A stretch of DNA of 64,000 nucleotides from a virus, in the IMG/VR virus record IMGVR_UViG_3300028920_000001, positions 1-64,000 of that record; one strand, 5' to 3'. The notes under the pieces were generated by a model. That model ran no database searches, was not told the origin of the DNA, and worked only from the letters and a program-made list of their open reading frames with translations. Shown one piece after another: positions 5,654 through 63,169 of the stretch; the first letter of the stretch is position 1, and every line of letters starts with the position of its first letter. The translations under genes and the position numbers were made by a program.

Positions 5654-7537
5654 ATGCATATTGATGAATTAAAGCAATATTTAAATTTAGAAAAGACTAA
5701 ACAAGAATTTGGTGAACCTAAAAATAATAAATCAATAGTATACGTGATTTGTGAGGATTGCCAATTAGACAGACAAATTACAATCCAGTCACTTAAGAAT
5801 AAACTTAGGTTAGATCGGGGGACTCGTTGTAATGCTTGTGGTACAAGATTTTCTTGGACAAATCCTGAAAGAAAAATTAGACAACAGCGAGTTTGGAAAG
5901 ATCCGGAGTATAGAAAGAAACAATCTAAAATTAGGAAGAAACAATGGGAAAATCCTGAGTATCAGCGCAAACAAGCTACTAAGACTGAGGCACGCAAAAA
6001 TGACTCTTCATATCAAGAAAGGATGTCTCGTCAGTCTAAAAAGCAATGGGAAAGGCCTGAATATCGAGAAAATCAGATAGAAATCCAAAAACAATTATGG
6101 AAAACTGAAGAGTATCGAAAAAATCAAAAAGCATTTAAGACTGAGGAATTTAAAAGAGGTCAATCTGTAAAACAGCAACAAGTATGGCAAGATCCTGAAT
6201 ATCGAGAAAATCAATCTGTAAAACAGCAACAAGTATGGAAAAGACCTGGATATAGGAAGCATCAATCAGCAATTCAAAGTCGAATTTGGAATAATCTAGG
6301 ATATCAGGAGCGGCAGTCAAAATTACAAAAACAGGTATGGCAGAATTTTGAATATCGGAAGCATTTTGAAGAAATTTGGGGAAGTGAAGAATATCGAGAA
6401 AAATTATCTAAATCTTTAACAGAAAAATGGAAAAATCCGGAATTTAGAAAAAGAGCTTCTGAAGCTGCAAAAGAAAGGTGGAAAGATCCGGAATTAAGAG
6501 AAAAACTTTCTATTGCAATTAAAAAGATGTGGGAAAGGTCTGAATATCGGGAAAAACAATCACGGGCTCAAAAAAGAAAATGGGAAGATCCTGAGTATCT
6601 AGAAAAAATGGTACAAGCCAGGTCTTCCCAACTCGGAAGAAGATCTTCTATTGAAAAAATTACTGAACAAATTCTTGGTTTAATTGGAGTTAATTATGAA
6701 ATAGAAGTTCCGATCGGTAAATATAGATTCGATTTTTACGTACCCGAACATGATTTATTCATAGAATGTCAGGGAGAATATTGGCATTCTATAGAAGGAA
6801 GACCTGCTCGAGATGCGGCCAAGTTCACTTATTTTGAAAAGGCTCAACCTGATTCTCAGATTTTATATCTTCATGAACGTGAGTTCTTAAATCCTGATTT
6901 AATAAGACGAAAATTGTTACTCTCCATGTTTGGGGACGGATTCAACTTTATTCAAAAAGAATTCAAATTTTCCGATCTGGCTATCCGTAAATTTGAACGG
7001 AAATCTAAAGAACCTCGTTTGTTCTTAAATTCATTTCATTATGCCCAATTCGGCAGGTCAGCTAAAGTAATTTACGGGGCTTATTTGGAGGATGAATTAG
7101 TTGCAGTCTGTAAATTTACTACTCCGGTTAGGAAAGAAGTTGCAACCTCGATGGACTATGCCTATTCAGAAGTCCTGGAATTAGATAGATTCTGTATTCA
7201 TCCGGAATATCAAAAGAAGAATCTTGCTTCTTGGTTTATCTCTCGATGTTCCAAATTAATATTTCAAGAATATCAAATTAAATGTCTGGTGTCATTTGCT
7301 GATTCAACTTATGGACATTTCGGGACGATTTATAAGGCTGCTAATTGGGAAGAGATAGGAAAGATTCGACCTGATTATCATTATGTTAATGATGATGGGT
7401 TCATCCTACATAAGAAAACCTTATATAATCATGCAGTGAAAATGGGTAAGAAAGAGAAAGAATACGCCGAAGAATTTGGATATCGAAAGGTGTTTGGTAA
7501 AGAAAAGATTAAATTTGTGAAAAAGATTCAATTGTAA
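5654..7537 (+). CDS. Large homing-endonuclease-like ORF: Zn ribbon + 14 W-x-[DN]-P-E-Y-R repeats + Vsr/DUF559-like nuclease core + GNAT-like C-terminal domain
   Basis: The N-terminus has a CEDC...CNAC ribbon followed by 14 Trp-initiated units of modal length 17 aa. Then comes YRFDFYVPEHDLFIECQGEYWHS and the C-terminal block LVSFADSTYGHFGTIYKAANW. It is a paralog of 55444..57231 over the last ~300 aa. Confidence 0.6.
   Translation: MHIDELKQYLNLEKTKQEFGEPKNNKSIVYVICEDCQLDRQITIQSLKNKLRLDRGTRCNACGTRFSWTNPERKIRQQRVWKDPEYRKKQSKIRKKQWENPEYQRKQATKTEARKNDSSYQERMSRQSKKQWERPEYRENQIEIQKQLWKTEEYRKNQKAFKTEEFKRGQSVKQQQVWQDPEYRENQSVKQQQVWKRPGYRKHQSAIQSRIWNNLGYQERQSKLQKQVWQNFEYRKHFEEIWGSEEYREKLSKSLTEKWKNPEFRKRASEAAKERWKDPELREKLSIAIKKMWERSEYREKQSRAQKRKWEDPEYLEKMVQARSSQLGRRSSIEKITEQILGLIGVNYEIEVPIGKYRFDFYVPEHDLFIECQGEYWHSIEGRPARDAAKFTYFEKAQPDSQILYLHEREFLNPDLIRRKLLLSMFGDGFNFIQKEFKFSDLAIRKFERKSKEPRLFLNSFHYAQFGRSAKVIYGAYLEDELVAVCKFTTPVRKEVATSMDYAYSEVLELDRFCIHPEYQKKNLASWFISRCSKLIFQEYQIKCLVSFADSTYGHFGTIYKAANWEEIGKIRPDYHYVNDDGFILHKKTLYNHAVKMGKKEKEYAEEFGYRKVFGKEKIKFVKKIQL
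6161..6238 (+). repeat. In-frame tandem duplication inside the W-x-DPEYR array (period 51 nt)
   Basis: caatctgtaaaacagcaacaagtatgg occurs identically at 6161-6187 and 6212-6238. Confidence 0.9.
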
Positions 7538-7764
7538 TGAATGTATTTTTCTTCATGATAACGGCTGAAGAATACCTTAAGCATTATTGTAAAGAAAATA
7601 ATATTAATTGGAATAAGCTTACTCGAGCTGAACAATTTATGTTAACTAGAAAAATTCCTTGTACTATTCGTTGTTTTAGAGTGGGTGGACCTGTCGATCT
7701 AGATGAAGATGGGACTTGTCCTGAATGTGGTGCAATTTGGTTAGCTGATGTTATGGAATCATGA
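7537..7764 (+). CDS. Small Cys-containing protein ending in VMES
   Basis: 75 aa, with a CPEC motif and C-terminus LADVMES. ATGA-type overlaps on both sides. Confidence 0.65.
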   Translation: MNVFFFMITAEEYLKHYCKENNINWNKLTRAEQFMLTRKIPCTIRCFRVGGPVDLDEDGTCPECGAIWLADVMES

Positions 7765-7976
7765 TTGTTGACATCCACAGGTGTCATCGGATTCCATGTA
7801 AAAATAAAGTAACTTATTATGTTAAAGTCACCTGGCCTTATCGATTTATGGATAATCAACGTATCATTGGAGTATGTAGCCAGCATAGATACACTGGAAT
7901 ATTTGGTGCATCTAAACATGATATTGAAGAAATTGGTAAGGAAGAAGCTTTTGTTTATGAAATCATGGAATCTTAA
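7761..7976 (+). CDS. Small Cys/His-rich protein ending in IMES
   Basis: 71 aa, C-terminus EAFVYEIMES. The stop is followed directly by the next ATG. Confidence 0.65.
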   Translation: MIVDIHRCHRIPCKNKVTYYVKVTWPYRFMDNQRIIGVCSQHRYTGIFGASKHDIEEIGKEEAFVYEIMES

Positions 7977-8351
7977 ATGAGACGATTTCTTTTACGACGT
8001 GATAAGGATGTAACCGGAATTTCCGGTACCGGAGTGATAGCCGAAGGTGTTATATTTGATGAAAAAGGAAAACCTGGGGAAGGAAAAGTTGTGCTTCATT
8101 GGCGCACATCAACATCTTCAATAGTTATTTATGAAAGTTTGGATGGAATAAAGAAAGTTCATTGTCATAACGAAAATACTAAAATTGTTTGGATAGATTG
8201 TTGTAAAACTTGTATTCATCTACAATGGTATGACGATAAAGGTGGTCAATGTTGGGGAACTTCATGTCCTGTGTATTATGAAGACTCATGTCCTGTGTAT
8301 CAATCTTCAATTCATCCTGAAATAATTGTGAAAACAGTGATGGAATCATAA
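7977..8351 (+). CDS. Small protein with Cys-rich C-terminal half, ending in VMES
   Basis: 124 aa. The N-terminal DVTGISGTGVIAEGVIFDE...VVLHW...VHCH...IVWID resembles a domain common in phage small proteins (recollection). C-terminus KTVMES. Confidence 0.65.
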   Translation: MRRFLLRRDKDVTGISGTGVIAEGVIFDEKGKPGEGKVVLHWRTSTSSIVIYESLDGIKKVHCHNENTKIVWIDCCKTCIHLQWYDDKGGQCWGTSCPVYYEDSCPVYQSSIHPEIIVKTVMES

Positions 8352-8394: not shown

Positions 8395-8454
8395 GGACGG
8401 ATAGGGTAAAAGCTCTCGCCCCCAAGAGCTTACCCAACACAGCCCTATCCGTCC
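8395..8454 (+). terminator. GC-rich nested stem-loop followed by a T-rich tract (candidate intrinsic terminator or structured RNA)
   Basis: ggacggataggg (8395-8406) pairs with ccctatccgtcc (8443-8454). An inner stem aagctct/agagctt lies within. The element is followed by ttgtattatttttatt and sits just after the last gene of a + strand run. Confidence 0.5.
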
Positions 8455-8478
8455 CTTGTATTATTTTTATTGATATCT

Positions 8479-8814
8479 ATGTCGCACTATTTTAATTCAT
8501 TTGAGGAAATGTGGGATGCCATAATTGATTTTATTTCCCATAATCCAGATGCTGTAATTTTATGTAATGATGATCCGTCTTCAAGAAAAATTGGATATTG
8601 TGCATACGCTTACAATAAAATTAATACATATTGGACGATGGATGTTAAACCATATAATGCTTATATCTGTAAACATTTTAAATCGGATCAAGATGTCAAT
8701 CCGACTGTATTTAATATTCGTTTGATATCAGCGGCAGCACTAAATCAAGGGATAAAACTTGAAAATTTTGATCCTGAGAATTGGCACCTGTTGTCTGATA
8801 TTCATTTAACTTGA
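8479..8814 (+). CDS. Hypothetical protein
   Basis: Track ORF 8470..8814 starts at a TTG. The first ATG is at 8479. Confidence 0.55.
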   Translation: MSHYFNSFEEMWDAIIDFISHNPDAVILCNDDPSSRKIGYCAYAYNKINTYWTMDVKPYNAYICKHFKSDQDVNPTVFNIRLISAAALNQGIKLENFDPENWHLLSDIHLT

Positions 8815-9246
8815 CATAATTTCATTAACTTGACATAATTTGCATTTAGGATGATGCCCTACAAATAAGTCGGCTACAATTTCTTTGCATTCTGGACATG
8901 GATATGAAGTGATTACAAAACCTCCACCACTGACTATGACTTCCAATTCATTCTTATTTTTAATTACCACTACTTTAGATACATCCATTTCATAGTTGAT
9001 TGATAAATCAAGAGTTCTAATTATACGATCATGGATTGTTGGAAATTCCCAGCTTTTGGGTACTATAATATCATTGTTAGGTATGGTGGAAGCTAAATTT
9101 TCTTGAAATTCAACTTGGATTTCCCCGTGTTCATACCAAATTTGCCCTTTTTGGTCTAATCTGTAACCAAATTCATCTAGCATCTTGTAAATTCTATTTA
9201 TTTCTTGATGTGATTGGGTCCAGAGATACTGCATTAGTTTATTCAT
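8806..9246 (-). CDS. Hypothetical protein with C-terminal CPEC...CKLC zinc-ribbon-like motif, ending in IMSS
   Basis: Track ORF 8806..9327. The internal Met at 9246 avoids a 68-nt head-to-head overlap with 9260..9583. Confidence 0.55.
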   Translation of the reverse strand: MNKLMQYLWTQSHQEINRIYKMLDEFGYRLDQKGQIWYEHGEIQVEFQENLASTIPNNDIIVPKSWEFPTIHDRIIRTLDLSINYEMDVSKVVVIKNKNELEVIVSGGGFVITSYPCPECKEIVADLFVGHHPKCKLCQVNEIMSS

Positions 9247-12973: not shown

Positions 12974-15900
12974 ATGGCTAATCCCCTCGGATCTGGCGTA
13001 ACTAGATATATTAATGGTAGGGACAAACAGTTAGGGTCTGTTATTATTCAAAGTAACAAACCTATTCTGGATTCCGAATTAAATCTTGCTCAGTTTGTTG
13101 ATTTAGAAGCTCGAGCTGAAGAAGTAAGGTCAAGAGTACCTTCGGGTTGGCTAATCAATGAAGCTAATCCGATGAATGACTTTGTTACTCATCCAAATTA
13201 TTCGAACTTATTTTTCTTTGGAAATCAGCATGTTAATGAGCTTCGAGATCTTCAGTGGGCAATTGTAAATGGGTGGCCCATACCTGTTACTGCTACTCGG
13301 ACTGGAGCTCCACCTCTTAGTCCGAATAATTTTGATACTTGGAATCGAATTGAATTAAATCCTCCCGGTGGAGCAACCGGTGGAAATAAAGTTGAATTCA
13401 TATTTCTTGAAGCCTGGTTACAACGTATAGATGTTGATCCAGCGCCACCAACTATTGCTCCTGGAAAACCTCAACGAGGATTTCTCTATCGATTTGGAAA
13501 TGTTGAGAGTGGATATTCATATTTACCAGACGACTTAATTGATCCGGACATGAATTTTGAGACTTCTAAGAGAATTCAGATTCAATACCGAATTCGAGTT
13601 ATTCAGAATATCAATCTTTCTCAATATCCTGAAGGGTTTGATCCTACTTTAGTTTTTGCTCAGGGTCCTCTCAGTACTCCGAGTGCTCTTTATTTCACAA
13701 ATATGCGTAAAGAACTCGGTGATCCTGGTCTATGGCGTGCCGGCACTGGTGATTCTGATTTAGTCGGAACAGTAGATGGTTATATTTATGCTATCCCGAT
13801 TTCAGCAGTATTCCGGCGCAATAGTGCAGGGTTCTCTGATACTGGAAATTTAGCAGGTGCATTTAATCGAAATAGTACTGCTACAACCAGAGAAGATGCT
13901 ATTGTTTATTCGAGTGGCCTCACTCTTCCCACCGACATTGCTGATACTGACACTCAATTCACTCTAACTACCATCTCCGGCACTGTGCTAGAGAATATGA
14001 GTTCGTTTGGGGAAGCATACTTTAGAGTCGATGATGAAATAATTCGAATTAGTAATATTAATCAAACGAGCCCGACTTCATTTGTAATTACTTTTGATCG
14101 AGGTCAATTACTAACTACTATCAGGGCCCATAGTGCTGGCAAGGCGCTCAATCTCTATACTGTTCGACCCGATGGGCTGTTTGCTGATCAGGTTGCGAGA
14201 ACTGACATTCTTGATCTTCGTCATTCAGTTGCTGATAAATTCGATTATGATTCCATCCTTAAAACTAATTTAGTTGAGCTTCTTAAGGGTAATTTACGTA
14301 CTGCTTGGAAGAGATTTGGTTCTACTAATACTGCGGGTCCGGTAGTTCTTTATGGTGATCGGATCACTGATGATTCGATCTTTGTTGGTGGTTTATCCAG
14401 GCTTGATGGCCCTAATGGTAACCGGCGAACTTGGTCTGATGCTATCACGACTGAACGGTTAGTAGTTTCTTGTCGTAATCCATCTGATAGTAACGCAATT
14501 GGTGATGATTTAGAAGTTTCAGTCGCTCCTTATAATATTATTGTGGAGTGGTCTAATGCTGATGCCACTAGATTGCCTGGTTCGCGTATTGATAGTGGTG
14601 TGTCTAAATGGTTTAATGGTGATAAGATTAAGATTAATTTAGCTGAATTTCAAGATGGTTTACCAGTAACGGATGCTGATCAAGTCAGGTTCATTACTCC
14701 GGATGAAGATGAAGATGCTGTTTTAATTCATTTTGAGGGAATGATTTCAGATCCTAATGGAGCAAATCCTTCAGTCGCCCCTTATTCAACTTGTCCATCT
14801 GTCACACTTCCGGTATTTTCTTCTGCTCCGACAGGGAATCGAATTCTGAAACATGGGCAAGGTATTACTGTTACTGTTGATGGATCTGGTAATCTCGAAA
14901 TTGAACTTGATAGTGGTACTTCTGGCACAGTTTTCCAAGAATTCCAGGACTGTCTTGATAATTTAGATACGATCACTTCTGATACTGCTGCAGCGTCATT
15001 AATGCACATTCAAGTTGGTGTTGTTTATGGTTCTGGACGTGGCTTATCGCATAAGCCAGATTATGTCCATAATGTGCATTATCGAGGAGATGCTTCTAAT
15101 TCGTCCAAGGTCATGTTACGGCCTGGGCTTAATAATGGGAATCGAATGATTCCTAGTTATGTTAGTTTTTCTCCTTATGTTCAAACTGGCAAGCATCGTG
15201 ACTTAGCTGTTACTTCTGAGGTAATGGTTGATACTGGATCAAAAACTATTAAAGTTCAGCCTTATCGGAATGTTTTATTACCGCCTTTGATTGTTCGAAA
15301 TGGAAATGTTTTGAATTGGGGTAATCTGGCTCAGCCTCAAGGGGCAATGCCGATGTATGATGAGCCTCGAACTACTCTTGTTCATACTTATGTTGATCCA
15401 CTTGATTTATTCTATATCGGGAACACTAATACTCGATACGTAGAAATTCCGTGGGAATATCTTCCTCGGCCTGGACTGCATCACGTTCCAATTATTCCAG
15501 TAACGGGGACAGTGTTCCCATCCGGAATCAATTTCTTGCTGATGTCTAAGACTGGATCAGTTGGAAGTACATCGGACTGGAATAGGAATTTAGTTGCATA
15601 TCCGTCGGCTTCTCCCGGTTACTATGTTGTAACCCCTGTAATTGGGGAAACTTACGGCGATTCATCTTCTTCTACTTCATGTTTCGGACAGAAATATGAA
15701 AATGAGGTATTGCCTACTTTAAGTGGACCATTTAGGGGCATCCAATTCCCGCCGTTTTATGGTCCTGCTCGAATCACTGGTGTTTATCTTCGTGATACGA
15801 CTGGAGCTCTTCCATACCCAACTACTCCAACATCTTCTCCATTCAACAATAATCGACAATTTGTTGGTGGTGTAGGAACTGATATTAACTTACTTAAGGA

Positions 15901-17623
15901 CGATTTTGATGGACCTACATTCTTGCTGGACGTAGACGCCAACGGTGATATCACATTTGTTTTGAATGCTGATGTTATTGATCTGACTAAAGCTCCGTCT
16001 GGAACTACCTGGGATAATTCAGAATTTATTGTTGAGTGCACTTTGTTTGCATTCGATCGTGGATTTCTTCAGACTAATGGTCGCTTGCTAATTACGCAAG
16101 CTAAAGGTCAAAGTCTGTCAGTTGATCTGAATACTTTCATTGATAATTCGGATGAACGGACTGGAATTATTGCACCAGCACCATTAACTTTAGGTGCTAC
16201 TAACAACGAACTTACCATTTTTTATAGTCGTCAACCTTATCAAGGTGACGTATTTGGTACTCGAGATGCTTATTCTGACGATGTTCAACGTCTTGGTCCA
16301 TTAACAGTATCTGAAGCTACTAGCATTTTTTCAAATCACCAGGGGCCAATTAATACGCTCACATTGTCAAATAAGACAGGGTTCGAAGTCCTGGCTGCAA
16401 CCAATTTTGTGACTTCATTAGGTACAGGGCGGCTTTCTGGATCTAATCCGATTCCGTTACTAACTGAAGAACAAAAGCCGGACGAAGTTATTGATTACGC
16501 GGGAACTTTAGTTGATTTTGATCGACGGTTTTCTCTTAATCGAGTTGGATATGAAGACTGGGAAACACCTCTGTTTCCAGTGGTAGAGGCTTCTGTTGCA
16601 GCCCGTCCAGATATTGAATTAGGTGCAATTTCGGAAGTATATGATCGAGATGTAAATACCGAATTTGCTGGATGTATTAGTCAGCTTCCTCTCGGAATTT
16701 ATTTCCGTGACAAAGATTTCATTGGAAAGACTTTATATCAGATTCGGAGTGCTAATAATATTGGTGCGATTCCACTAGGTACTCTTTACTTCCCGCCCTT
16801 CGAATCTCCCGTATCAGCACTTTCTCCGGGTCAATCCACTTGGGAAGGTGTGGAATTTGTTTGTGGGCAATCTAGTAGTGCATCTGGAGTCGGTGGAGAA
16901 GCACTGATTAAGGTAGATGGCACTGCTAATTACGGTAGTGTTACTCAATTTAAGGCTGCTCGAGGTGGTGCTGGTTGGTCCGTGACTAATCCATGGCCAG
17001 GTGCTGCCATTTCGGCGAAATTACCTAAAGCTCGGCCTAATTCCAATGCCGGCGCAGTTCTTTCTGGAATTGCATACTTGGTGAGGTCACAACCTGAAAC
17101 TGTGAATTCAATTGAAGTTCATCCTGGAAATGAACTTCAGTTATTGATAGTTACCCAAGCAGCTCCTACTTATTTCCGGGATTCTGATATCCTTCATTCT
17201 GCTTCTGGTACGAATGAAGGTTATACTGCGGTAGACAGGTATCGAATTTGGGGGCGTCCATTAGTTAAGCGTCGAGGTGAGATTGATGTTTCGTCATCAG
17301 TAATGCCATCGCCTCCGCCTATCTTTGTCAATAATATTTATGATGATCCAGTTTTCTATGGATCTAGTGATGTGAGCTTGAATTCAGTTGCGCACGGTCA
17401 ATTGGTGGTTACATCTGATGGTCAAACTGGATTCAGTCTACCTTCTCAGCCAATTAATCAAGACGCTCCAATGATTTGGGTGCGTGGTGTGAAGTTAGAT
17501 AAGGATACAGACTATACAATTAGTGGAGCAACGAACCAAACGCTTACTTACATCCCTAGTTTCCCGGATAACACGGAACTAGAGGTAGACGATGTGCTTG
17601 AATACTACTATCTAAGGATCTGA
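12974..17623 (+). CDS. Very large virion structural protein (1549 aa)
   Basis: Long uninterrupted ORF. The N-terminal ~420 aa are paralogous to 9626..12187 (AIVNGWP, DDLIDP, RIQIQYRIRVI, GTVDGYIYAIPI, RPDGLFADQ). Confidence 0.75.
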   Translation: MANPLGSGVTRYINGRDKQLGSVIIQSNKPILDSELNLAQFVDLEARAEEVRSRVPSGWLINEANPMNDFVTHPNYSNLFFFGNQHVNELRDLQWAIVNGWPIPVTATRTGAPPLSPNNFDTWNRIELNPPGGATGGNKVEFIFLEAWLQRIDVDPAPPTIAPGKPQRGFLYRFGNVESGYSYLPDDLIDPDMNFETSKRIQIQYRIRVIQNINLSQYPEGFDPTLVFAQGPLSTPSALYFTNMRKELGDPGLWRAGTGDSDLVGTVDGYIYAIPISAVFRRNSAGFSDTGNLAGAFNRNSTATTREDAIVYSSGLTLPTDIADTDTQFTLTTISGTVLENMSSFGEAYFRVDDEIIRISNINQTSPTSFVITFDRGQLLTTIRAHSAGKALNLYTVRPDGLFADQVARTDILDLRHSVADKFDYDSILKTNLVELLKGNLRTAWKRFGSTNTAGPVVLYGDRITDDSIFVGGLSRLDGPNGNRRTWSDAITTERLVVSCRNPSDSNAIGDDLEVSVAPYNIIVEWSNADATRLPGSRIDSGVSKWFNGDKIKINLAEFQDGLPVTDADQVRFITPDEDEDAVLIHFEGMISDPNGANPSVAPYSTCPSVTLPVFSSAPTGNRILKHGQGITVTVDGSGNLEIELDSGTSGTVFQEFQDCLDNLDTITSDTAAASLMHIQVGVVYGSGRGLSHKPDYVHNVHYRGDASNSSKVMLRPGLNNGNRMIPSYVSFSPYVQTGKHRDLAVTSEVMVDTGSKTIKVQPYRNVLLPPLIVRNGNVLNWGNLAQPQGAMPMYDEPRTTLVHTYVDPLDLFYIGNTNTRYVEIPWEYLPRPGLHHVPIIPVTGTVFPSGINFLLMSKTGSVGSTSDWNRNLVAYPSASPGYYVVTPVIGETYGDSSSSTSCFGQKYENEVLPTLSGPFRGIQFPPFYGPARITGVYLRDTTGALPYPTTPTSSPFNNNRQFVGGVGTDINLLKDDFDGPTFLLDVDANGDITFVLNADVIDLTKAPSGTTWDNSEFIVECTLFAFDRGFLQTNGRLLITQAKGQSLSVDLNTFIDNSDERTGIIAPAPLTLGATNNELTIFYSRQPYQGDVFGTRDAYSDDVQRLGPLTVSEATSIFSNHQGPINTLTLSNKTGFEVLAATNFVTSLGTGRLSGSNPIPLLTEEQKPDEVIDYAGTLVDFDRRFSLNRVGYEDWETPLFPVVEASVAARPDIELGAISEVYDRDVNTEFAGCISQLPLGIYFRDKDFIGKTLYQIRSANNIGAIPLGTLYFPPFESPVSALSPGQSTWEGVEFVCGQSSSASGVGGEALIKVDGTANYGSVTQFKAARGGAGWSVTNPWPGAAISAKLPKARPNSNAGAVLSGIAYLVRSQPETVNSIEVHPGNELQLLIVTQAAPTYFRDSDILHSASGTNEGYTAVDRYRIWGRPLVKRRGEIDVSSSVMPSPPPIFVNNIYDDPVFYGSSDVSLNSVAHGQLVVTSDGQTGFSLPSQPINQDAPMIWVRGVKLDKDTDYTISGATNQTLTYIPSFPDNTELEVDDVLEYYYLRI

Positions 17624-34952: not shown

Positions 34953-35234
34953 ATGCGTTTTGCACATATGAAAACTAAAGATGGTACTCTGGTAGTCGTA
35001 TCCGTATCTAAAGACAAACTTTATATTACTATTTCACCTGAATTAGGAATGCATACTGGGATCACCTTAGATCCAAATGCAATTAAATGGAATACAATGT
35101 GGTTTATTAAAATTATCCGTGGTTTTATTGAAGTTGGAAATATTAAATGTGATATTTTCGATGTAGCTAAAACAGTTTTGACTTTAGCGAAGAAACAGCA
35201 TTACGATGTGTTGTTACCAGTGATGTGTAGTTAA
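34953..35234 (+). CDS. Hypothetical protein
   Basis: 93-aa ORF, last + strand gene before a convergent - strand gene. Confidence 0.5.
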   Translation: MRFAHMKTKDGTLVVVSVSKDKLYITISPELGMHTGITLDPNAIKWNTMWFIKIIRGFIEVGNIKCDIFDVAKTVLTLAKKQHYDVLLPVMCS

Positions 35235-35641
35235 GTCTCCATAACGTCTGAAACTAAGGCAGTTTTAAGAGTGTCGATTATTTTAAGTGAATTTTTAGAT
35301 ATGGTTTCCATTAGTGCTTCCTGTATATCATAATCGTTTTTTATTATTTCAGACAATTGCCAATGAATATTATAATCTTTTTCAAATAAAATAAGGAATA
35401 GACTAAGGAATTTTTCCATATTAACAGGTTTTAATTCATAGCCTTTTCCTTTACACTCTCTGCATTTCACATCATCTAATGAGACTGTCTGATCTAATGT
35501 TCTATAACTTTCGTTGTGTCCTTTTCCATAACAAAAATTGCAGGGGATTGTTATCATCAGTCCAATTTTATCGAAATCTTCGCCAGAACCATAACCTAAT
35601 AGAATATCTTTAATTTCTCTGCGAAGATTTTCATCCATCAT
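35231..35641 (-). CDS. Small protein with DnaJ-type CxxCxGxG zinc-finger pair, ending in VMET
   Basis: CNFCYGKGH and CRECKGKGY motifs, C-terminus LVSDVMET. Confidence 0.6.
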   Translation of the reverse strand: MMDENLRREIKDILLGYGSGEDFDKIGLMITIPCNFCYGKGHNESYRTLDQTVSLDDVKCRECKGKGYELKPVNMEKFLSLFLILFEKDYNIHWQLSEIIKNDYDIQEALMETISKNSLKIIDTLKTALVSDVMET

Positions 35642-54717: not shown

Positions 54718-55443
54718 TTATTTTTGCATAATACTTTCGACAATCTCGGTATTTTCTAGCCATTGCGCAATATCAGGATGAATTTGATCTTTGTTAGGTA
54801 ACTTAATATTGCCCTTAGGAATTTTGCTAAATTGGAAAAATCGATTATTTTCCCTAAATATCATGGCAGTTTTCTTAGTAATTTTTGCACCTAATAAGGA
54901 TTGAACTTTTCGCCTTCGTTTTAGGAATACTTGTTTTTCATTGTCGGTAAGATCATCAGGTTGAATAAATCCATTCCTGAGTTCCATGAATCTAGCAGTA
55001 AATTTAGCCACACAGTAGGCGTCTGCTTCATCAGATTGCATGGGATCAGGATTCATTTGATCTAATTGCACAAACCGTTGAATATCTTGTTTATCAGCGG
55101 ATCCTTTACCAGTCAAGAATTTCACTGTGGCTGGATCAAACAAGACACAATCTTTGCGTTTTTCGAAAATAGCCTCGAGAGAAAACATCATTAGGCCAAA
55201 ATGGCGCTCAGAATATTCCCCACCACCATAGGCTGGACTTTCCAGTCCAACCAAATCTACTCTGTGCCGTCGAAGTAAATCAGCAACTAATGAACGAAAA
55301 TGAATATAACGAGCTACTGGGACTACCGATTTTAATGTTCCCTCATGTCCAGAAGCAATTAGTTTTCTCTTGCCTTTTAATGTAGAATCATAAATAGCCC
55401 ATCCATAGGATAACAAACTCGGATCTAAACCCAAAGCCTTCAT
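54718..55443 (-). CDS. ruvC: RuvC-like Holliday junction resolvase
   Basis: MKALGLDPSLLSYGWAIYD, VGLESPAYGG and DEADAYCVAKF match RuvC catalytic Asp/Glu contexts. The start could be 55443 or 55455. Confidence 0.75.
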   Translation of the reverse strand: MKALGLDPSLLSYGWAIYDSTLKGKRKLIASGHEGTLKSVVPVARYIHFRSLVADLLRRHRVDLVGLESPAYGGGEYSERHFGLMMFSLEAIFEKRKDCVLFDPATVKFLTGKGSADKQDIQRFVQLDQMNPDPMQSDEADAYCVAKFTARFMELRNGFIQPDDLTDNEKQVFLKRRRKVQSLLGAKITKKTAMIFRENNRFFQFSKIPKGNIKLPNKDQIHPDIAQWLENTEIVESIMQK

Positions 55444-57231
55444 ATGATACTCCATTTAGAACCTGATGATGTATATAAATCATTCATTTATACCGGTGCT
55501 CCGATTAAAATAGGTGAATTTAGCGCTAAGAAATTACCATTTAAGTGTAAATGTGGGTCAATAAAATTAATAAGAATGAATACCATTACTACTGGGAAAA
55601 GTACAACTTGTGGGGAATGTAGTAAAATTAACTTAAATTACGGTACTAAATTCAACGATCTTATTTACATCGGGCCTTCAATTCGAATCCATCCTCAAAG
55701 TGAAAAAAAATTATTATTTAAATGTAAATGTGGTAAATCTAAGTATATTAGGTTCTTTACAGTAGAGAAAGGTAAAGCCAAGAAATGCGGGGACTGCAAT
55801 TTAACTGTTATTAAAAAGGGCGACAAAATAGGTAATTTTTGGTATGCTGGAAATGAAATTACTGAATATCTAGGAACAATTAAAAAATATCCATTTAAAT
55901 GCAAATGTGGGAAGATAGTGTTTCTTAGTCTAAGAAACACTAAGAAAAATCAAACATGTGGTAAGTGTAATGAAATATTATTGAAACACATGGAAAAATA
56001 TCAAACTTTTGTTTATTTAGGTAAAGATATTCATATCGGACCTTGGTCTAAAACAAAATTGCCATTTAAATGTAGATGTGGGGCATTAAAGTATATTTCC
56101 ATCTCATCTATTACATGTGGAGATACTGTATCATGTACTAATTGCTATCAAATAATTAGTACATGGTATAAAAATAATGTACCAACACTTAAAAAATTAA
56201 AATGTCCAATCTCCCCTAGTCAATTTCCGATAGGTGGCCCAATTCCATTAGAAACAATTAAATTTCGTTCTAAGAGTTATACCTTTCTTTGTCCTATTTG
56301 TGATAGTCAATATAATCCAACTTTAAATGAAATTGTAAGAGGAAAGCGATTAACATGTGGCTGCATATGCAATAAAATTTCAGTTCCTAATAGAGAAATA
56401 AAAAACTTTATAGATTCATTAAATTTGAATTCTGAATTGGAATTCAAATTAGACGGCAGATATTTTGACATTAAATCAGGTAACTTGTTGATTGAATTGA
56501 ATGGAATCCGTTGGCATTCCAAAATAAATTCAAGACAACGTGATACTGAAAAATATTCAATAGCTATGGACAATGACTACCAATTATTGTCCATATTTGA
56601 AGATGAATGGAAAAACAAAAAACAGATATTTAAAAACATTATACAACATAATCTTGTACGCAGTGAGTCCATACTCTTACGACCTCAAAAGTGTGAAATT
56701 TTAAAAGTTCAAAATAAAGAAATCAACGACTTTTACGAAAGAACTCATTATATTGGTAAATGTAAAGCTAAAGTTCACTATGCTGTTATTCATGATTCTA
56801 AAATTATAGCTGCCATGTCTTTTGGTAAGCCAACTCGGCCTACCAAAAGATACGATTGGGAAATAATACGAATAGCAACAGATCCAAATTACCATGTTCA
56901 TGGAATCTGGTCTAAACTCTTGAAATTGTTTATTAAAGAATATAAACCAAAGTCCATTGTGTCTTTTTCAGATAATCGTTTGTTTACTGGAAAAGTGTAT
57001 GAAAAATTGGGTTTCACTTATGATGGAGATGTGAAACCTGATTACTACTGGACGTTAGGAAATAAGAGATTCCATAAATCTAATCTCAGGAAAACTAAAG
57101 AAGAAAAATTAACTGGTTTAACTGAAACTCAGTTAAGAGAAGCCCAGGGATATAAGAAAATTTGGGATTTAGGGAAAAAGAGATGGGTCTATCAATTGAT
57201 AGACCCATCTAATTCCAAAGCCCGCACTTAG
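55444..57231 (+). CDS. Large homing-endonuclease-like ORF: 4-5 tandem Zn-ribbon units + Vsr/DUF559-like nuclease core + GNAT-like C-terminal domain
   Basis: Repeated ~58-aa units (KKLPFKCKCGxxKxI...CGxC). Then RYFDIKSGNLLIELNGIRWHS and the C-terminal block IVSFSDNRLFTGKVYEKLGF...PDYYW. It is the only + strand gene in a - strand block. Confidence 0.6.
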   Translation: MILHLEPDDVYKSFIYTGAPIKIGEFSAKKLPFKCKCGSIKLIRMNTITTGKSTTCGECSKINLNYGTKFNDLIYIGPSIRIHPQSEKKLLFKCKCGKSKYIRFFTVEKGKAKKCGDCNLTVIKKGDKIGNFWYAGNEITEYLGTIKKYPFKCKCGKIVFLSLRNTKKNQTCGKCNEILLKHMEKYQTFVYLGKDIHIGPWSKTKLPFKCRCGALKYISISSITCGDTVSCTNCYQIISTWYKNNVPTLKKLKCPISPSQFPIGGPIPLETIKFRSKSYTFLCPICDSQYNPTLNEIVRGKRLTCGCICNKISVPNREIKNFIDSLNLNSELEFKLDGRYFDIKSGNLLIELNGIRWHSKINSRQRDTEKYSIAMDNDYQLLSIFEDEWKNKKQIFKNIIQHNLVRSESILLRPQKCEILKVQNKEINDFYERTHYIGKCKAKVHYAVIHDSKIIAAMSFGKPTRPTKRYDWEIIRIATDPNYHVHGIWSKLLKLFIKEYKPKSIVSFSDNRLFTGKVYEKLGFTYDGDVKPDYYWTLGNKRFHKSNLRKTKEEKLTGLTETQLREAQGYKKIWDLGKKRWVYQLIDPSNSKART

Positions 57232-59814: not shown

Positions 59815-60021
59815 TCAGTCTTCCATAATCATAGTAACAAATGCTTCTTTTAAATAAATTTTATATAATTTGGGTGAATCTGCTTCTCGACACCAAGGGC
59901 AAATTTCATCCAACGGAATAAGATCACCATCCAAAGCACACGGTTTACCACAACGTTGACATCCAATTACTCCACTAGCAATGGAAATTGGTCTGGCATG
60001 TTGAGGATCATAATGTAACAT
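59815..60021 (-). CDS. Small zinc-ribbon protein ending in IMED
   Basis: CQRCGKPC...CPWC motifs, C-terminus EAFVTMIMED. Confidence 0.6.
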   Translation of the reverse strand: MLHYDPQHARPISIASGVIGCQRCGKPCALDGDLIPLDEICPWCREADSPKLYKIYLKEAFVTMIMED

Positions 60022-60561
60022 TCAAGATTCCATGATTTCAGCTACAAATGACTCTTTTTTCAGTCTAGAAATTCTATGGTGCAATATTATGAGCCAAGGA
60101 AATGATACTAACCAAGCAACACAGGCTAACATGATGAACGTGTATTCTGGGAGTTTTTTAATGATTGCAATTTTAGATCGGAAAGATTGATTTATTCTAG
60201 TAATTCGAAAGATAAATGAAAAACTCCACGCTATTCCTATTACACAAATAATTGGCGTTATCCAAAGACTGGGGTTTGTTTTTACCATAAAGAAATGATT
60301 GATGATTGGAGTTGCCATTGATCCTACGGTAGCTGCGACAGGAGTCATCCACATTCGAGAAAATGATCTATAAATCCGTTGAAATTTTAAATCTTCCAAC
60401 ATCTGTGCTGGAAAAGAACGGTTAAGAATCTGAACCAAATTTTGCATTTGATTCGTAAATTCAGTACATGATACTCCCATACTTTTAAGTGCCTTATTAT
60501 ATTGCTTCGTTAAGAGTTTTTGATTTTTTAGATAGTCTTGAATGATTTTTTCTTGGTTCAT
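60022..60561 (-). CDS. Membrane protein ending in IMES
   Basis: 179 aa with several hydrophobic segments, C-terminus ESFVAEIMES. Confidence 0.6.
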   Translation of the reverse strand: MNQEKIIQDYLKNQKLLTKQYNKALKSMGVSCTEFTNQMQNLVQILNRSFPAQMLEDLKFQRIYRSFSRMWMTPVAATVGSMATPIINHFFMVKTNPSLWITPIICVIGIAWSFSFIFRITRINQSFRSKIAIIKKLPEYTFIMLACVAWLVSFPWLIILHHRISRLKKESFVAEIMES

Positions 60562-61015: not shown

Positions 61016-61201
61016 TTACATTTCCATGATGAAATTAACGATATATGTTTGCCAGTATTCAATGGCTTCTGGAATGGAAAAAGCAGGAGGGCCTTCATGA
61101 TAGCATTCTTCATTAAGACATCCGACGAGAAAGAAGTGCCTTCGATGCCAGACATCACATTTTTGCCCACAGATAGGACAAGGTCCTAAATTTGTTTTCA
61201 T
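61016..61201 (-). CDS. Small zinc-ribbon protein ending in IMEM
   Basis: CPICGQKC...C..EC motifs, 61 aa. Confidence 0.55.
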   Translation of the reverse strand: MKTNLGPCPICGQKCDVWHRRHFFLVGCLNEECYHEGPPAFSIPEAIEYWQTYIVNFIMEM

Positions 61202-61725
61202 GACACCATAACGCTAGTTACTATTCGTTCTTTTCGATTAGCTCTTCTCACTTTTAGATTCCATAATTTTTTGGATTGAGGATGACATGTACATTTTGTG
61301 ACTACAAAGAAATTATCTTCACCAGGGCCGATGGCAATGATTTTACCAATTTCTACTGGCTTATTATGGATATGAATAAATAACTCTTTATGTTTTTTAA
61401 TGATACTAACTAAAATAATTGTCCAAATTGCAGTTAATCCAATTCTTAAATATAGACTGCCTGGCTCAGAAGGAAAAACATAAGGCACCCATTTAGCAAA
61501 ACTCGGTGGTGCCCATCTATAAGTAGCAAGATAAATATAAAGCAAAATCCAAAATCGTGACCACCAAATCTTACGACTCAGAGGTCGTTTTTTCTCCCAT
61601 TCTAATGTTTTATCAAGTGACCAAAATAATGGTTTGAAGATAATACCTAGTACTTTAAACAGAAGTTTCAGGAAACCCATATCTAAAAGACGTGTTAAGA
61701 TAGGGTCTCGTTTGCTAACATTCAT
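61198..61725 (-). CDS. Membrane protein, ending in VMVS
   Basis: 175 aa with three or more hydrophobic segments. Confidence 0.55.
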   Translation of the reverse strand: MNVSKRDPILTRLLDMGFLKLLFKVLGIIFKPLFWSLDKTLEWEKKRPLSRKIWWSRFWILLYIYLATYRWAPPSFAKWVPYVFPSEPGSLYLRIGLTAIWTIILVSIIKKHKELFIHIHNKPVEIGKIIAIGPGEDNFFVVTKCTCHPQSKKLWNLKVRRANRKERIVTSVMVS

Positions 61726-62765
61726 CGTTCATTTTGGCAAATTAGAAAGTCGCCGCCACAATGATCATAGCAACTTTGCCAAATTTCACTGGGCATTTCA
61801 TGCTTATCTTGACAGATTTTTCGACACTTCCATAATTTATCCTGGCAGGTAGGTTCCCAAGGAACTTGGTCCATATCCCAAGCTAATCCGACTTCCCAAA
61901 TTTCATTTACAGGGCGATATTGGCTAACAAATCGTTCTTTTCTTCCATCAGTATACCAAACTGCCAGAATCCCTTTTTCTCCGTCTTTTCCTCGTTGAAT
62001 GCGTGTTTTGTGGTCTGTTCGCCATTTATTGGTTTTGCGGAATTTCTTTTTATACGGCTCGGTACCATTGCTGATCCAACGAGTTTTCTTAATTGGTTTC
62101 TTGATTTGAACGTTTCGACTATACAAAACCACACGTAACTTACTTAAATCTTCAGTGACTTCATAAGTTTCGGCATGTAAATAAACTGAAGCTGGATATG
62201 GATTCTTAAAAACTAAATCAAGTTCAGGATAACTAACAGTTGCATCAAACCCTCGTTTGATATAAGTCGATGGTCTCGAATGAGAAGTTCGCTGCACAAT
62301 TTCCATTCCTGACATTAATGCTGCAGCATGGATTGTAGAACTTACCTGACAAGTTCCACCACCGTATTCTTCTTTAAATTCACCGAGATAAATTATGATA
62401 GAAGTCATATACCCGAATTCTTCTGTTCGGGGACCTACTGTTTTATTATAAGAAAATGAATCACCAGGATGAATTGGGATCCATTCTAAATTTGCTACAT
62501 TAGTCTTAATATTATGAGCTCGATTTTCATATCGGGAGGTTTTATATTTACCTACATGCTGGTAAATAGTTTCATATTCTCCCACCACATGATACTTATC
62601 ATATGATTCTGGTGATTTTATTTCAGGAAAAGTAATTTCCGGCCATTTCTGAAGAACTAATAGCTGTGGCTGTGGCTGTGGCTGTGGTTCAGTTTTACAA
62701 GCTGGGATTAGATAAGAGATCGTAATTCCGATAAAGACTGAGGTGAGAATTCTGATCAAATTCAT
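61722..62765 (-). CDS. VanW-domain lipoprotein with (PQ)n linker and Cys-rich C-terminus
   Basis: The N-terminus ISYLIPACK is a possible lipobox. GDSFSYNKTVGPRTEEFGY...GGGTCQVSSTIHAAALMSGMEIVQRTSHSRP...GFDATV matches the VanW core (GGGiCQvSTTLy.A...aGL....R..Hs). Confidence 0.65.
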   Translation of the reverse strand: MNLIRILTSVFIGITISYLIPACKTEPQPQPQPQLLVLQKWPEITFPEIKSPESYDKYHVVGEYETIYQHVGKYKTSRYENRAHNIKTNVANLEWIPIHPGDSFSYNKTVGPRTEEFGYMTSIIIYLGEFKEEYGGGTCQVSSTIHAAALMSGMEIVQRTSHSRPSTYIKRGFDATVSYPELDLVFKNPYPASVYLHAETYEVTEDLSKLRVVLYSRNVQIKKPIKKTRWISNGTEPYKKKFRKTNKWRTDHKTRIQRGKDGEKGILAVWYTDGRKERFVSQYRPVNEIWEVGLAWDMDQVPWEPTCQDKLWKCRKICQDKHEMPSEIWQSCYDHCGGDFLICQNER

Positions 62766-63169
62766 TAGCTCTCCATCACTTCAGCTATTCCAGCTAAAAG
62801 AACTAAATTGTCGATTTGGCTCTTATACTGAAAAATGTACACATAGGCGCTTCGGCTACCTTGTTGACCCGTCTCAACAGCAACAAACCAAAATCGGCTA
62901 CAAGTAAGATGCTTATCCTTAATGTCTGCAATTACACCTTCAAAGTTACCTTTTTTAAGCATATTTTTAACTGAGACAACACCATTCTTTTCCCAATCTG
63001 TTGAACCGGCAAAGAAATAGTAAATACAATTAAGTTCAAGAGTTTCTGTGGATAGTTTCCAACGATCTGGCTCCCAATACCGACAAAAATTCCAGGGCAC
63101 TTGATTATAAAATCGCTGCTGAGGGACTTTCTTTTTCCGTTTAGGAGCAGGATTCCAGGGCCAGTTCAT
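62765..63169 (-). CDS. Hypothetical protein ending in VMES
   Basis: 134 aa, C-terminus GIAEVMES, with Ser encoded by AGC. Confidence 0.6.
   Translation of the reverse strand: MNWPWNPAPKRKKKVPQQRFYNQVPWNFCRYWEPDRWKLSTETLELNCIYYFFAGSTDWEKNGVVSVKNMLKKGNFEGVIADIKDKHLTCSRFWFVAVETGQQGSRSAYVYIFQYKSQIDNLVLLAGIAEVMES

Follow-up and report, generated by a model that had tools for sequence, protein, structure and literature searches.

Why do three consecutive small genes of a huge phage, whose products are otherwise dissimilar, all end in [VI]-M-E-S-COOH, and what might such a tail do? The window analyzed here, by which we mean the whole stretch of 64,000 nucleotides, forms the beginning of a huge-phage contig of 428,825 bp from a metagenome. 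A first-pass annotation of the window had listed eleven genes with this tail or a variant of it, and all eleven tails were found where it had placed them: the exact form on 7537-7764 (LADVMES), 7761-7976 (YEIMES), 7977-8351 (KTVMES), 60022-60561 (AEIMES) and 62765-63169 (AEVMES), close variants on 35231-35641 (DVMET), 59815-60021 (MIMED) and 61016-61201 (FIMEM), and looser variants on 8806-9246 (EIMSS), 59415-59813 (KVMNS) and 61198-61725 (SVMVS). The longer match E[AS]FVx[EM]IME[SD], which had been described for three members, was likewise correct. Two carriers in the window had been missed, namely 34953-35234 (PVMCS) and the RuvC-like 54718-55455 (IVESIMQK), and a further six lie in the 9 kb immediately beyond the window end. 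The carriers in the window, together with one hairpin, are as follows.

7537..7764, plus strand: small Cys-rich protein of 75 aa (69 aa from the second ATG), ending AIWLADVMES
7761..7976, plus strand: 71-aa C..C..CxxH zinc-ribbon protein, ending KEEAFVYEIMES
7977..8351, plus strand: 124-aa fusion of an Acb5-like domain (residues 1-77) and a Cys-rich extension, with the tag EIIVKTVMES
8395..8454, plus strand: strong hairpin (z = -4.3), then a U-rich tract, 3' of 7977-8351
8806..9246, minus strand: CPEC...CKLC zinc-ribbon protein, ending LCQVNEIMSS (start uncertain: 9234, 9246 or 9327)
34953..35234, plus strand: 93-aa protein, ending DVLLPVMCS (loose variant)
35231..35641, minus strand: 136-aa protein, weak match to a DnaJ-type CxxCxGxG zinc finger, ending TALVSDVMET
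54718..55455, minus strand: RuvC-like resolvase of 245 aa, with the degenerate tag TEIVESIMQK past the conserved last helix
59415..59813, minus strand: 132-aa membrane protein, ending NYTVHKVMNS
59815..60021, minus strand: 68-aa CxxC...CxxC zinc-ribbon protein, ending KEAFVTMIMED
60022..60561, minus strand: 179-aa multi-pass membrane protein, with the tag KKESFVAEIMES
61016..61201, minus strand: 61-aa zinc-ribbon protein, ending TYIVNFIMEM
61198..61725, minus strand: 175-aa membrane protein, ending KERIVTSVMVS
62765..63169, minus strand: 134-aa orphan protein, ending LLAGIAEVMES

Enrichment of the tail was assessed over 73,169 bp of the 429-kb genome (the window and the 9 kb past its end), using 92 greedy gene calls. 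In this set 19 of the 92 genes carry [VI]M at positions -4/-3 from the end, against 0.15 expected from a background of 38 internal occurrences in 23,230 positions (binomial p ~2e-34). The pattern V-x-x-[VI]-M-x-x-COOH ends 14 genes and has 0 internal occurrences, and [VI]ME[ST] ends 10 genes and has 1. That the tails reflect chance or a gene-calling artefact has nothing in its favor except the shortness of the motif, and this vanishingly improbable reading is refuted by p values of ~1e-24 to 1e-34 against the internal rate, by the finding of such ends on only 2 of 436 non-gene ORFs, by the agreement of the gene ends used here with those in the source's own gene calls, and by the recurrence of the pattern in independent metagenomes. 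The enrichment that the first-pass annotation proposed is thus real, and larger than it noted.

A tail this short might instead be the by-product of a nucleic-acid signal that is translated by coincidence. Such a signal might serve as ribosome-binding site or coupling element for the next gene, as terminator or RNase site, or as a module for recombination. The sequence ATGGA looks like a fragment of a Shine-Dalgarno sequence, and the next start codon lies directly 3' of several carriers. Shine-Dalgarno or coupling elements, however, are purine-rich and GGAGG-like, keep a constant distance of 5-9 nt to the next start and are used genome-wide, whereas most of 48 called genes here have no Shine-Dalgarno sequence upstream and the methionine of the tag invariably occupies position -3 of its own protein, at a variable distance from the next start codon. 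The tag is also found on genes that have no downstream partner. In particular, the hairpin at 8395..8454, which a simple terminator scan missed, leaves the tagged gene 7977-8351 without a translationally coupled downstream gene, and 35231-35641 is convergent with 34953-35234, the two stop codons overlapping; both arrangements had been noted from the sequence at first pass and proved correct, as did the conclusion that the tail is not simply the ribosome-binding site of the next gene. Nor do the tails join tandem genes by stop-codon recoding or read-through, given that adjacent genes are in mixed frames and that all three stop codons occur.

The codons of the tail point the same way. In 45 non-redundant tails, V(-7) and [VI](-4) have an invariant second base and a third base of maximal entropy (1.95-1.99 bits); serine codons of both the TCN and the AGY type occur; and in sister lineages V/I codons take the place of ATG. 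Only ~9 of 24 nucleotides are fixed, all of them at the first and second codon positions of four residues, and the flanking DNA is unrelated from tail to tail. The suggestion that a conserved 3' DNA module mediates the shuffling of these genes therefore fails, as does any reading of the tail as a DNA repeat, whereas the synonymous variation on which the case for a conserved peptide had been built is confirmed. Because third codon positions vary and the tag is retained in relatives whose genomes range from 37% to 64% GC, selection is acting on the tail peptide. A translated nucleic-acid signal is accordingly very improbable and, in our view, effectively refuted.

What, then, is the peptide? The consensus is K-E-x-Phi-V-x-[ED]-[VI]-M-E-S-COOH, and the tail profile confines the information content to the last 8-12 residues. 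The hydrophobic positions -8, -7, -4 and -3 fall on one face of a short helix, which is capped by an acidic and a small residue and followed by the free carboxyl end. Serine is the last residue in 25 of 44 tails, the rest being mostly E, T or A. In a confident structure model of the RuvC-like resolvase the tag forms a helical overhang past the conserved fold, with falling pLDDT; the predicted structure of the 7977..8351 fusion is of low confidence and uninformative on the tail. The tails of the membrane carriers are predicted to be cytoplasmic, since they are preceded by basic juxtamembrane segments. For example, the tag KKESFVAEIMES of the 60022..60561 product ends 19 residues past the last transmembrane segment, after a basic stretch, and the cytoplasmic tail in some of these carriers is 16-19 residues long. 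The tag is thus predicted to be cytoplasmic throughout, membrane proteins included. Short, position-specific, portable between unrelated bodies, conserved where these diverge and outside the fold, it has what appears to be the form of a generic short linear docking motif.

The bodies that bear the tag are diverse, comprising zinc-ribbon proteins, membrane proteins, a fusion with a domain like Acb5 (an anti-CBASS enzyme type), a RuvC-like resolvase (tagged in two lineages only) and larger helical proteins. An all-against-all BLASTP comparison of the carriers returned tail matches only, which excludes ordinary paralogy, and domain searches with 30 carriers (Pfam and PHROGs) gave essentially no matches, the 7537..7764 product being among those without one. 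The claim that the bodies are unrelated therefore holds at the level of BLASTP but not for one zinc-ribbon subfamily: the 7761-7976 product is a member of a remote C..C..CxxH family that also occurs in relatives and takes in one carrier just beyond the window end, and in this family the tail falls within a longer conserved helix at the C terminus, S-x-E-E-[YW]-Phi-V-x-E-V-M-E-S. The profile of this subfamily had no match in the PDB, and in a set of 5.8 billion proteins all the family members that it found came from the window phage or from relatives sampled before: four of its own input proteins and close relatives of the 7761-7976 product. Carriers in relatives also occur in tandem arrays with weak paralogy. 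Inheritance within the zinc-ribbon family and within these arrays implies that not every carrier is an independent acquisition; that subfamily apart, the tail acts like a C-terminal tag that is transferable between unrelated bodies.

The same tag is found on the orphan genes of related huge phages. The gene sets of these relatives are greedy ORF calls, except for L129, L002 and L004, and the carrier counts refer to sampled loci, of 20-43 kb each in some lineages. These loci yielded 98 unique carriers; 49 end exactly [VI]MES, and most others have a final S, T, E or A with E, D, N or T before it. In a 20-kb stretch of L129 the tag was seen on 27 of the 43 called genes, and in L109 on 17 of 32 genes. 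In sister lineages V/I, and sometimes H, replaces M at -3; this residue shifts coherently by lineage across unrelated carriers, and the M-type and V-type lineages are separate in a RuvC tree. The more distant huge phages sampled had no tags, and L014/L097, L018 and L020, which lie inside the clade, had few or none in the 20-43 kb sampled. No nucleotide match to the window was found among GenBank phages, and exact-peptide scans with two cluster genes found no close relatives; the best GenBank relative, LR745208 (485 kb), is syntenic at ~31% identity and has none of these tails in the 100 kb examined. As sampled here, the tag defines a clade of huge phages, within which the tail is kept from one relative to the next.

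Whether orthologues of individual carriers keep the tail, a check proposed at first pass, has a mixed answer. An 83%-identical homologue of the Acb5-like fusion retains it, as does the sole homologue found of the 62765..63169 product (92% identical). Other Acb5 homologues have neither the Cys-rich extension nor the tag, so that this domain is tagged only in the window-phage lineage, and among ~17 RuvC orthologues only those of the window phage and L010 (ending TVKEVMES) are tagged. For RuvC, the one carrier with wide conservation, the outcome named as refuting at first pass, orthologues without the tail, is what was seen in most cases. Since the same relatives tag many other proteins, the absence of the tail from their RuvC would reflect modular gain and loss rather than lack of function. 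The distribution across orthologues shows a tag that is gained and lost independently of the protein body.

These observations bear on whether the tail needs a receptor at all. It could be intrinsic to the structure, for example a helix for capping or self-association, in small proteins that all belong to one superfamily evolving very fast, and owe its spread to common descent and domain fusions. The zinc-ribbon subfamily, with the tail inside its longer conserved helix, and the weakly paralogous tandem arrays are what such an origin would leave. It gives no reason, however, for a helix to stop exactly two residues past the methionine in 98 of 98 proteins, for the information to be limited to 8-12 residues, for the tag to occur on folds as clearly unrelated as those of RuvC, the Acb5 fusion, membrane proteins and larger helical proteins, or for the -3 residue to change in concert across them; moreover, RuvC presumably works in most relatives without the tag. 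We consider this explanation unlikely.

Similarly improbable, in our estimation, is a loading or sorting signal into a destination that the phage builds, be it the capsid interior for co-injection, a compartment or a factory. The heads of huge phages are known to contain many packaged proteins (PMC7411985), and an anti-defense carrier such as the Acb5-like fusion would gain from delivery in advance. The amphipathic helix is of the right size, and the presence of one terminal peptide on many unrelated small proteins recalls the encapsulin, microcompartment and T4 capsid-targeting systems. In addition, [VI]-M-E|S formally matches the (L/I)-x-E pattern at which the T4 prohead protease cuts. Against capsid loading, the tag lies 16-19 residues from the membrane in several carriers that span it more than once. 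RuvC is among the carriers, the motif is unlike the consensus sequences of encapsulin loading peptides, and the carriers are located among small orphan genes with sigma-70-like extended -10 motifs that adjoin replication and recombination genes, not in a head module.

We favor, as a somewhat probable explanation, that the tails constitute a portable C-terminal docking tag of ~8-12 residues, borne by many mostly unrelated, fast-evolving accessory proteins of this phage and its clade and read by one shared cytoplasmic receptor. Such a receptor would recognize the hydrophobic face together with the free C terminus and impose a common fate on all carriers; it would be phage-encoded or host-specific and would therefore co-evolve with the tag. 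The fate that we think likeliest, tentatively, is that the carriers dock on an AAA+ protease or unfoldase, or on the adaptor of one, with docking to some other hub about equally possible. In the AAA+ case the tag may serve as a shared degron through which early accessory proteins are cleared, or as a tether by which variable small proteins deliver targets. It is possible, too, though we hold this loosely, that the phage encodes an addressing system, a PTS1-like or F-box-like C-terminal code read by one dedicated machine, either a loader or a protease/unfoldase. This code would mark 50-100 or more fast-evolving accessory proteins per genome, anti-defense enzymes included, and the machine would co-evolve with it (M, V/I or H at -3). 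As a loader the machine would pack carriers for co-injection or send them to a phage-made compartment; as a protease or unfoldase it would make the carriers an arsenal of interchangeable target adaptors.

Phylogenetic profiling for the receptor left no candidate after an HMM check. The product of 58966-59307 seemed specific to tag-using lineages and was dropped because its HMM also matches in tag-free ones; the phage DnaJ (37762-38847), considered as a lineage-specific receptor, is likewise present in lineages without tags in the sampled windows. Two observations count against docking to a protease: the polar, acidic E-S end is unlike the familiar non-polar C-terminal degrons of bacteria (LAA of ssrA, Tsp substrates), and a cytoplasmic tail of only 16-19 residues in some membrane carriers leaves FtsH little length to engage.

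Huge phages carry mainly small orphan genes that give no hint of what they do. With one tag shared by a fifth or more of them, and by >60% in some relatives' regions, this "dark matter" could be grouped as one functional class, and a single receptor that governs what becomes of all its members is predicted and should be findable. The tag can also serve experiments and engineering as a peptide handle to be moved between proteins, and the signature [VI]-[MVIH]-[ED]-[SG]-COOH after a hydrophobic helix face should make the clade and its accessory arsenal recognizable in metagenomes. Literature searches for the motif or an equivalent system returned nothing relevant; if the receptor does prove to be a loader or protease hub, this would be, by the literature searched, the first proteome-scale C-terminal sorting code in a bacterial virus.

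How does the tag compare with known terminal signals? Like the degrons and adaptor tails of AAA+ proteases, it is a short, transferable, cytoplasmic peptide at the extreme C terminus of both soluble and membrane proteins. The ssrA tag, however, ends in non-polar LAA and is read by ClpXP, ClpAP, FtsH and Tsp, and the C-terminal "XB" peptide of SspB, LRVVK-COOH, tethers SspB to ClpX, whereas the phage tag ends in E-S and has no protease or adaptor linked to it. An ssrA-like ClpXP/ClpAP degron would need three non-polar final residues, at odds with 49 of 98 tails ending [VI]MES, and a Tsp/Prc substrate would need a non-polar periplasmic C terminus, at odds with the polar end of the tag and its predicted cytoplasmic location. 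The number of carriers per genome is far above that in any phage case known.

Encapsulin and microcompartment peptides are terminal amphipathic stretches of ~10-18 residues that bind one shell protein, and the shells of encapsulins have the HK97 fold, as phage capsids do. The likeness lies in unrelated proteins with a common terminal amphipathic peptide; the consensus, though, is another (encapsulin cargo-loading peptides are LxIGSLK-like and Gly/Ser/Leu-rich), no shell operon is seen, the Pfam lists for the window and its extension contain no encapsulin, and the carriers include integral membrane proteins and a resolvase. The capsid-targeting sequence of T4 resembles the tag in being a short peptide common to dissimilar proteins of one phage, there for a common destination, but it is N-terminal, cleaved off and found on a handful of internal proteins, whereas the tag is found at the C terminus, and in a large share of the accessory genes.

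Tails that bind hubs of DNA metabolism, such as DDDIPF of SSB, QL[SD]LF for the clamp and the gp45-binding tails of T4, let different proteins dock on one hub by a terminal peptide, and RuvC is a carrier here. The tag nevertheless has neither the Gln nor the aromatic position of a beta-clamp-binding motif, ends in Ser and not in the IPF, DF or LL that follows the Asp/Glu run of an SSB-type tail, and is borne mostly by proteins that are not DNA enzymes, some of them membrane proteins. A separate motif, SY[DE][DE]LL, on 57228-58115 and 58195-58959 fits the SSB-type acidic tail better.

Comparable, too, are the poxvirus ankyrin/PRANC proteins and the PDZ-binding tails of animal viruses, in which arrays of diversified viral accessory proteins end in an unvarying docking element that connects them to a single cellular machine. 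The PRANC element, unlike the short phage tag, is an F-box-like eukaryotic domain of 30-40 residues, and PDZ ligands of classes I-III end in a hydrophobic residue, a position held in the tag by Ser or mostly E, T or A. The Dot/Icm type IV effectors likewise carry a loose acidic-plus-hydrophobic C-terminal signal, a Glu-rich "E-block" with a hydrophobic residue near -3, on hundreds of proteins, and the phage tag is found on many unrelated small proteins; the Dot/Icm signal is longer, far less sharp and served by a bacterial secretion system, and no secretion machinery was seen here. The tag fits none of the known motif families tested, and it looks like a previously undescribed address or docking tag with a common partner.

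Every C-terminal tail related to [VI]-M-E-S-COOH that the first-pass annotation had listed is present in the window at the coordinates given for it, and additional carriers, that is, proteins ending in the tag V-x-x-[VI]-M-E-S-COOH or a variant of it, could be added. Two lie within the window (34953–35234, ending PVMCS, and the RuvC-like protein encoded by 54718–55455, ending IVESIMQK), and six more tails are found on L004, the 9 kb of the same contig past the window end (IVLVMYC, VILVMQS, IVRNIMES, LVEEIMES, VVSKVMET and LIEPIMES). Among 92 non-overlapping ORF calls over 73,169 bp (window plus extension) of the 429-kb genome, [VI]-M occupies positions −4/−3, counted back from the protein end, in 19 genes against 0.15 expected, with 38 internal occurrences in 23,230 positions (binomial p ~2e-34). 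The longer pattern V-x-x-[VI]-M-x-x ends 14 of these genes and never occurs internally; [VI]-M-E-[ST] ends 10 and occurs internally once. Outside the gene set, only 2 of 436 ORFs have a tag-like end. Chance is ruled out as the origin of the tails, and the earlier observation of a shared tail is confirmed as real and proves to have been understated. The sole internal [VI]MES in the 92 proteins is the SSIMES at residues ~80–85 of 59415–59813, a tagged membrane protein, just past a transmembrane segment; it may be what remains of a former C-terminus.

The proposal that the tail is not simply the ribosome-binding site of the next gene is borne out by its spacing, which ranges from overlapping the next start codon to >14 nt from it, by the rarity of Shine-Dalgarno sequences (mostly absent upstream of 48 called genes) and by three carriers that have no coupled downstream gene. 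Gene 7977–8351 is indeed followed by a strong hairpin (8395–8454, z = −4.3), and 35231–35641 is convergent with its neighbour 34953–35234, the two overlapping at their stop codons and both being tagged. The synonymous codon variation noted before extends to 45 non-redundant tails drawn from the window phage and its relatives, in which Ser is encoded as TCN and AGY and Glu as GAA and GAG. At the V/I codons of positions −7 and −4 in these tails the second base is fixed and the first restricted, with a third-base entropy of 1.95–1.99 bits (maximum 2); such near-maximal entropy speaks against a conserved 3′ module for gene shuffling, which had been offered as an alternative. Codon entropy, the placement of Met exactly three residues from the end in every tail, the variable spacing and the uncoupled carriers exclude a ribosome-binding site, a terminator and a recombination module alike and, with chance also excluded, what is conserved is the peptide at the C-terminus.

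An extended −10-like motif, TGTA(T)AAT, lies ≤35 nt upstream of 17 of the 92 gene starts (~3% expected), often only 6–10 nt from the ATG (about 6–12 nt before many starts); examples precede 5654, 41968, 46843(−), 58959(−), 59307(−) and 61007(−), and in 61016–61201 tag, stop codon and motif overlap (GAA ATG TAA T). Together with the lack of Shine-Dalgarno sequences in most genes, this suggests that many transcripts have a short leader or none.

Only the final 8–12 residues of the tails carry information above background: weak signals for K (−11) and E (−10), a hydrophobic residue (−8), V/I (−7; 36 of 44 tails), E/D (−5), V/I (−4) and M (−3), these last two being the positions used to select the tail set, E (−2; 24/44) and S (−1; 25/44). 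The hydrophobic positions −8, −7, −4 and −3 fall on a single helix face. AlphaFold modelled the RuvC-like protein with confidence (mean pLDDT 90); in that model the tag extends the last helix (residues 227–244) beyond the part common to orthologues, with confidence falling to 67 at the end. These data show peptide-level selection on an amphipathic C-terminal helix of 8–12 residues anchored exactly to the free end; because this anchoring is exact, a merely structural helix is disfavoured.

Carriers tend to be short, with a median of 134 aa where other genes have 199 aa (p = 0.002), and nearly all were orphans in Pfam and PHROGs searches. Among them are zinc-ribbon proteins of the CxxC type, four proteins in which transmembrane segments are clear, one with a weak DnaJ-type zinc-finger match, the RuvC-like resolvase and the product of 7977–8351. 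In the four membrane carriers the tags come after basic juxtamembrane stretches, and so are predicted to be cytoplasmic. The earlier description of the bodies as unrelated stands in that all-against-all BLASTP found no kinship, but some carriers share a family of small C..C..CxxH zinc ribbons (alignment A3), comprising 7761–7976, the carrier 65006–65281 just past the window and many proteins in the relatives L009, L109, L114 and L122; no PDB relative of this family was found. In it, a longer conserved helix, [ST]-x-E-E-[YW]-Φ-V-x-E-V-M-E-S, terminates in the tag. Since weak paralogy is also seen among the tandem carriers of relatives, part of the tag's abundance reflects family expansion.

Residues 1–77 of 7977–8351 form a domain of the Acb5 family (phrog_7499; among the matches precomputed by the source, PF26761), which cleaves 3′3′-cGAMP and blocks CBASS (2025 preprint, 10.1101/2025.07.12.664507). 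Its R8, W42, H62 and H64 columns are all invariant in a 14-sequence alignment and fall at positions near those of the catalytic R10/W38/H61 of Acb5A. Fusion of this domain to a Cys-rich extension and a VMES tag is found in this lineage only.

The expectation that orthologues keep the tail held for close homologues and failed for others. The sole homologue of 62765–63169 (92% identical) keeps the tag, as does an 83%-identical homologue of 7977–8351, whose last 16 residues are unchanged; more distant Acb5 homologues have neither Cys-rich extension nor tag. Almost all of the many RuvC orthologues at 41–64% identity end untagged shortly after a conserved '...WLE' helix, yet the 58%-identical RuvC of L010 ends in a perfect tag, TVKEVMES. 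The tag is thus not needed for the RuvC enzyme fold and, being kept or absent on the same body, is modular: portable between protein bodies, and gained by and lost from a given one.

Exact-protein matches identify the window, of 37% GC, as the first part of ENA metagenome contig ERZ27252253:k141_1146627 (428,825 bp), and near-identical fragments are present in other ENA, Logan and JGI samples. No tRNA genes were found in the window, and it has no nucleotide match among GenBank phages. The nearest GenBank record, the 485-kb uncultured phage LR745208, is ~31–32% identical (polymerase and one giant protein, whose relative order is shared), which marks the window as part of a huge phage of a poorly sampled lineage. 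It encodes a family A DNA polymerase, a DnaB-like and an SNF2 helicase, a primase zinc ribbon, a UvsX/RecA-like recombinase, an SbcC-like ATPase, the RuvC-like resolvase, a RuvB-like AAA+ protein, a pair of sigma-70-like proteins and the following:

5654–7537 (+), Mom-like/GNAT protein: a zinc-ribbon-like start, a long N-terminal array of degenerate ~11–13-residue repeats (…W.[DN]PEYR..QS…), then the Mom domain
12974–17623 (+), giant ORF, 1,549 aa; shares 31% identity with a region of LR745208 across 63% of its length; weak matches to its N-terminal 330 residues are a tail-fibre protein from Tunturiibacter phage Tunturi_5 and Bacillus phage G gp211
17631–21905 (+), giant ORF, 1,424 aa
21948–26342 (+), giant ORF, 1,464 aa
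27435–28412 (−), LAGLIDADG homing endonuclease gene, on the opposite strand inside a + strand block
37762–38847 (−), full-length DnaJ with J domain, CxxCxGxG zinc finger and C-terminal domain, next to the DNA polymerase
47070–47390 (+), separate small J-domain protein
55444–57231 (+), Mom-like/GNAT protein

The three consecutive giant ORFs have no Pfam match. An HNH endonuclease gene lies just past the window end (L004 1042–1623). In a strain variant, the 24-kb ENA contig L001, an inserted extra 116-aa gene (L001 9214–9564) separates the Mom-like gene from the first tagged one (junction at 7537); it is a paralogue of 8470–8814, both ending ...ENWHLL..[IV]HLT, and shows recent gene turnover directly adjoining the tagged cluster 7537–8351.

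Relatives were sampled from IMG/VR huge-phage contigs, 80 loci through RuvC alignment and nine through the polymerase, and 30 more were fetched by a degenerate DNA pattern for V-x-E-[VI]-M-E-S-stop. Phages whose RuvC is at least ~50% identical have the tag too, on orphan genes of their own that are non-homologous to those of the window. Tagged are 7 of 37 genes in L012, 17 of 32 genes in 11 kb of L109, at least 39 genes in the ~50 kb sampled of the 436-kb contig 3300032782_000001 to which L109 belongs (14 exact pattern matches) and, in 20 kb of the related Logan contig L129 with gene calls taken from the source itself, 27 of 43 genes (ending [VI]-[MH]-x-[STAL], all but two in Ser), these frequencies being biased by windows set on anchors or the motif, above all in the 30 motif-pattern loci. 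Most gene sets are greedy ORF calls, some spurious in GC-rich loci; L095 (63% GC) has LVSEIMES and MREIMES. Half of the 98 unique carriers (49) end exactly in [VI]MES.

Variants of the tag are: VMNE, VMSE, VMEA and VMKS in L009, L093 and L098; His for Met in several carriers of the 436-kb phage (EVHES, SVHES, DVHES; L129, L109); and V/I for M in the sister lineages L046 and L015 (VVDS, VVDG, VIDG, VIES, VVES, LIEG, IIEG). Ends of the form Φ-Φ-[DE]-[small]-COOH number 28 against 1.7 expected in the close clade and 6 against 4.3 in more distant huge phages. In a neighbour-joining tree of RuvC, M-type lineages group together, with V-type lineages as sisters; no tags were found in the sampled windows of one subclade and the distant clade, or in 100 kb of LR745208. 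In these sequences the tag is thus a lineage-specific code, used clade-wide and drifting coherently, as would be expected of a ligand co-evolving with a receptor.

We infer that a single putative receptor would read the hydrophobic face and terminal carboxylate, giving carriers a common fate; occurrence of the tag on soluble enzymes and, near the membrane, on membrane proteins favours a fate independent of each protein's own function. Ranked first is docking to an AAA+ protease/unfoldase or its adaptor, in which case the tag might be a shared degron or, by analogy, a tether like the SspB tail or poxvirus PRANC proteins. The polar E-S end matches no bacterial degron known to us. Docking to some other hub ranks second, and a loading or sorting signal for a capsid or compartment, which membrane carriers and RuvC fit poorly, third.

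Profiling and HMM searches across sampled tag-using and tag-free lineages found no receptor for the tag. Protein 58966–59307 seemed limited to tag-using lineages until an HMM matched it in tag-free ones; its orthologue in L012 (7662–8042) ends ...KKYIMES-TETVAR, a tag-like sequence plus six extra residues. The phage DnaJ, with orthologues in most relatives sampled around the polymerase, was rejected as a lineage-specific receptor, being present also in a lineage without tags in its sampled windows.

A second C-terminal motif, [SN]-Y-[DE]-[DEAS]-L-[LI] plus 0–2 residues, ends the paralogous proteins (254 and 295 aa) of 57228–58115 and 58195–58959 (− strand; ISYEDLLK, QGYDDLL), just upstream of RuvC. 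Kept by orthologues (L008–L020, L046, L057) in every relative examined, tag-free lineages included, it looks like an SSB-type acidic docking tail in a recombination module (RuvC, UvsX-like, SbcC-like).

As a terminal docking or address peptide, the tag resembles ssrA-type degrons and SspB XB tails, encapsulin and microcompartment loading peptides and the T4 capsid-targeting sequence, and SSB tails, clamp-binding tails and PDZ ligands; it is without the defining sequence feature of each of these families that could be checked. The literature available for searching held no description of it. We class the tag as a device of a known kind, a terminal docking/address peptide, in a new sequence form.
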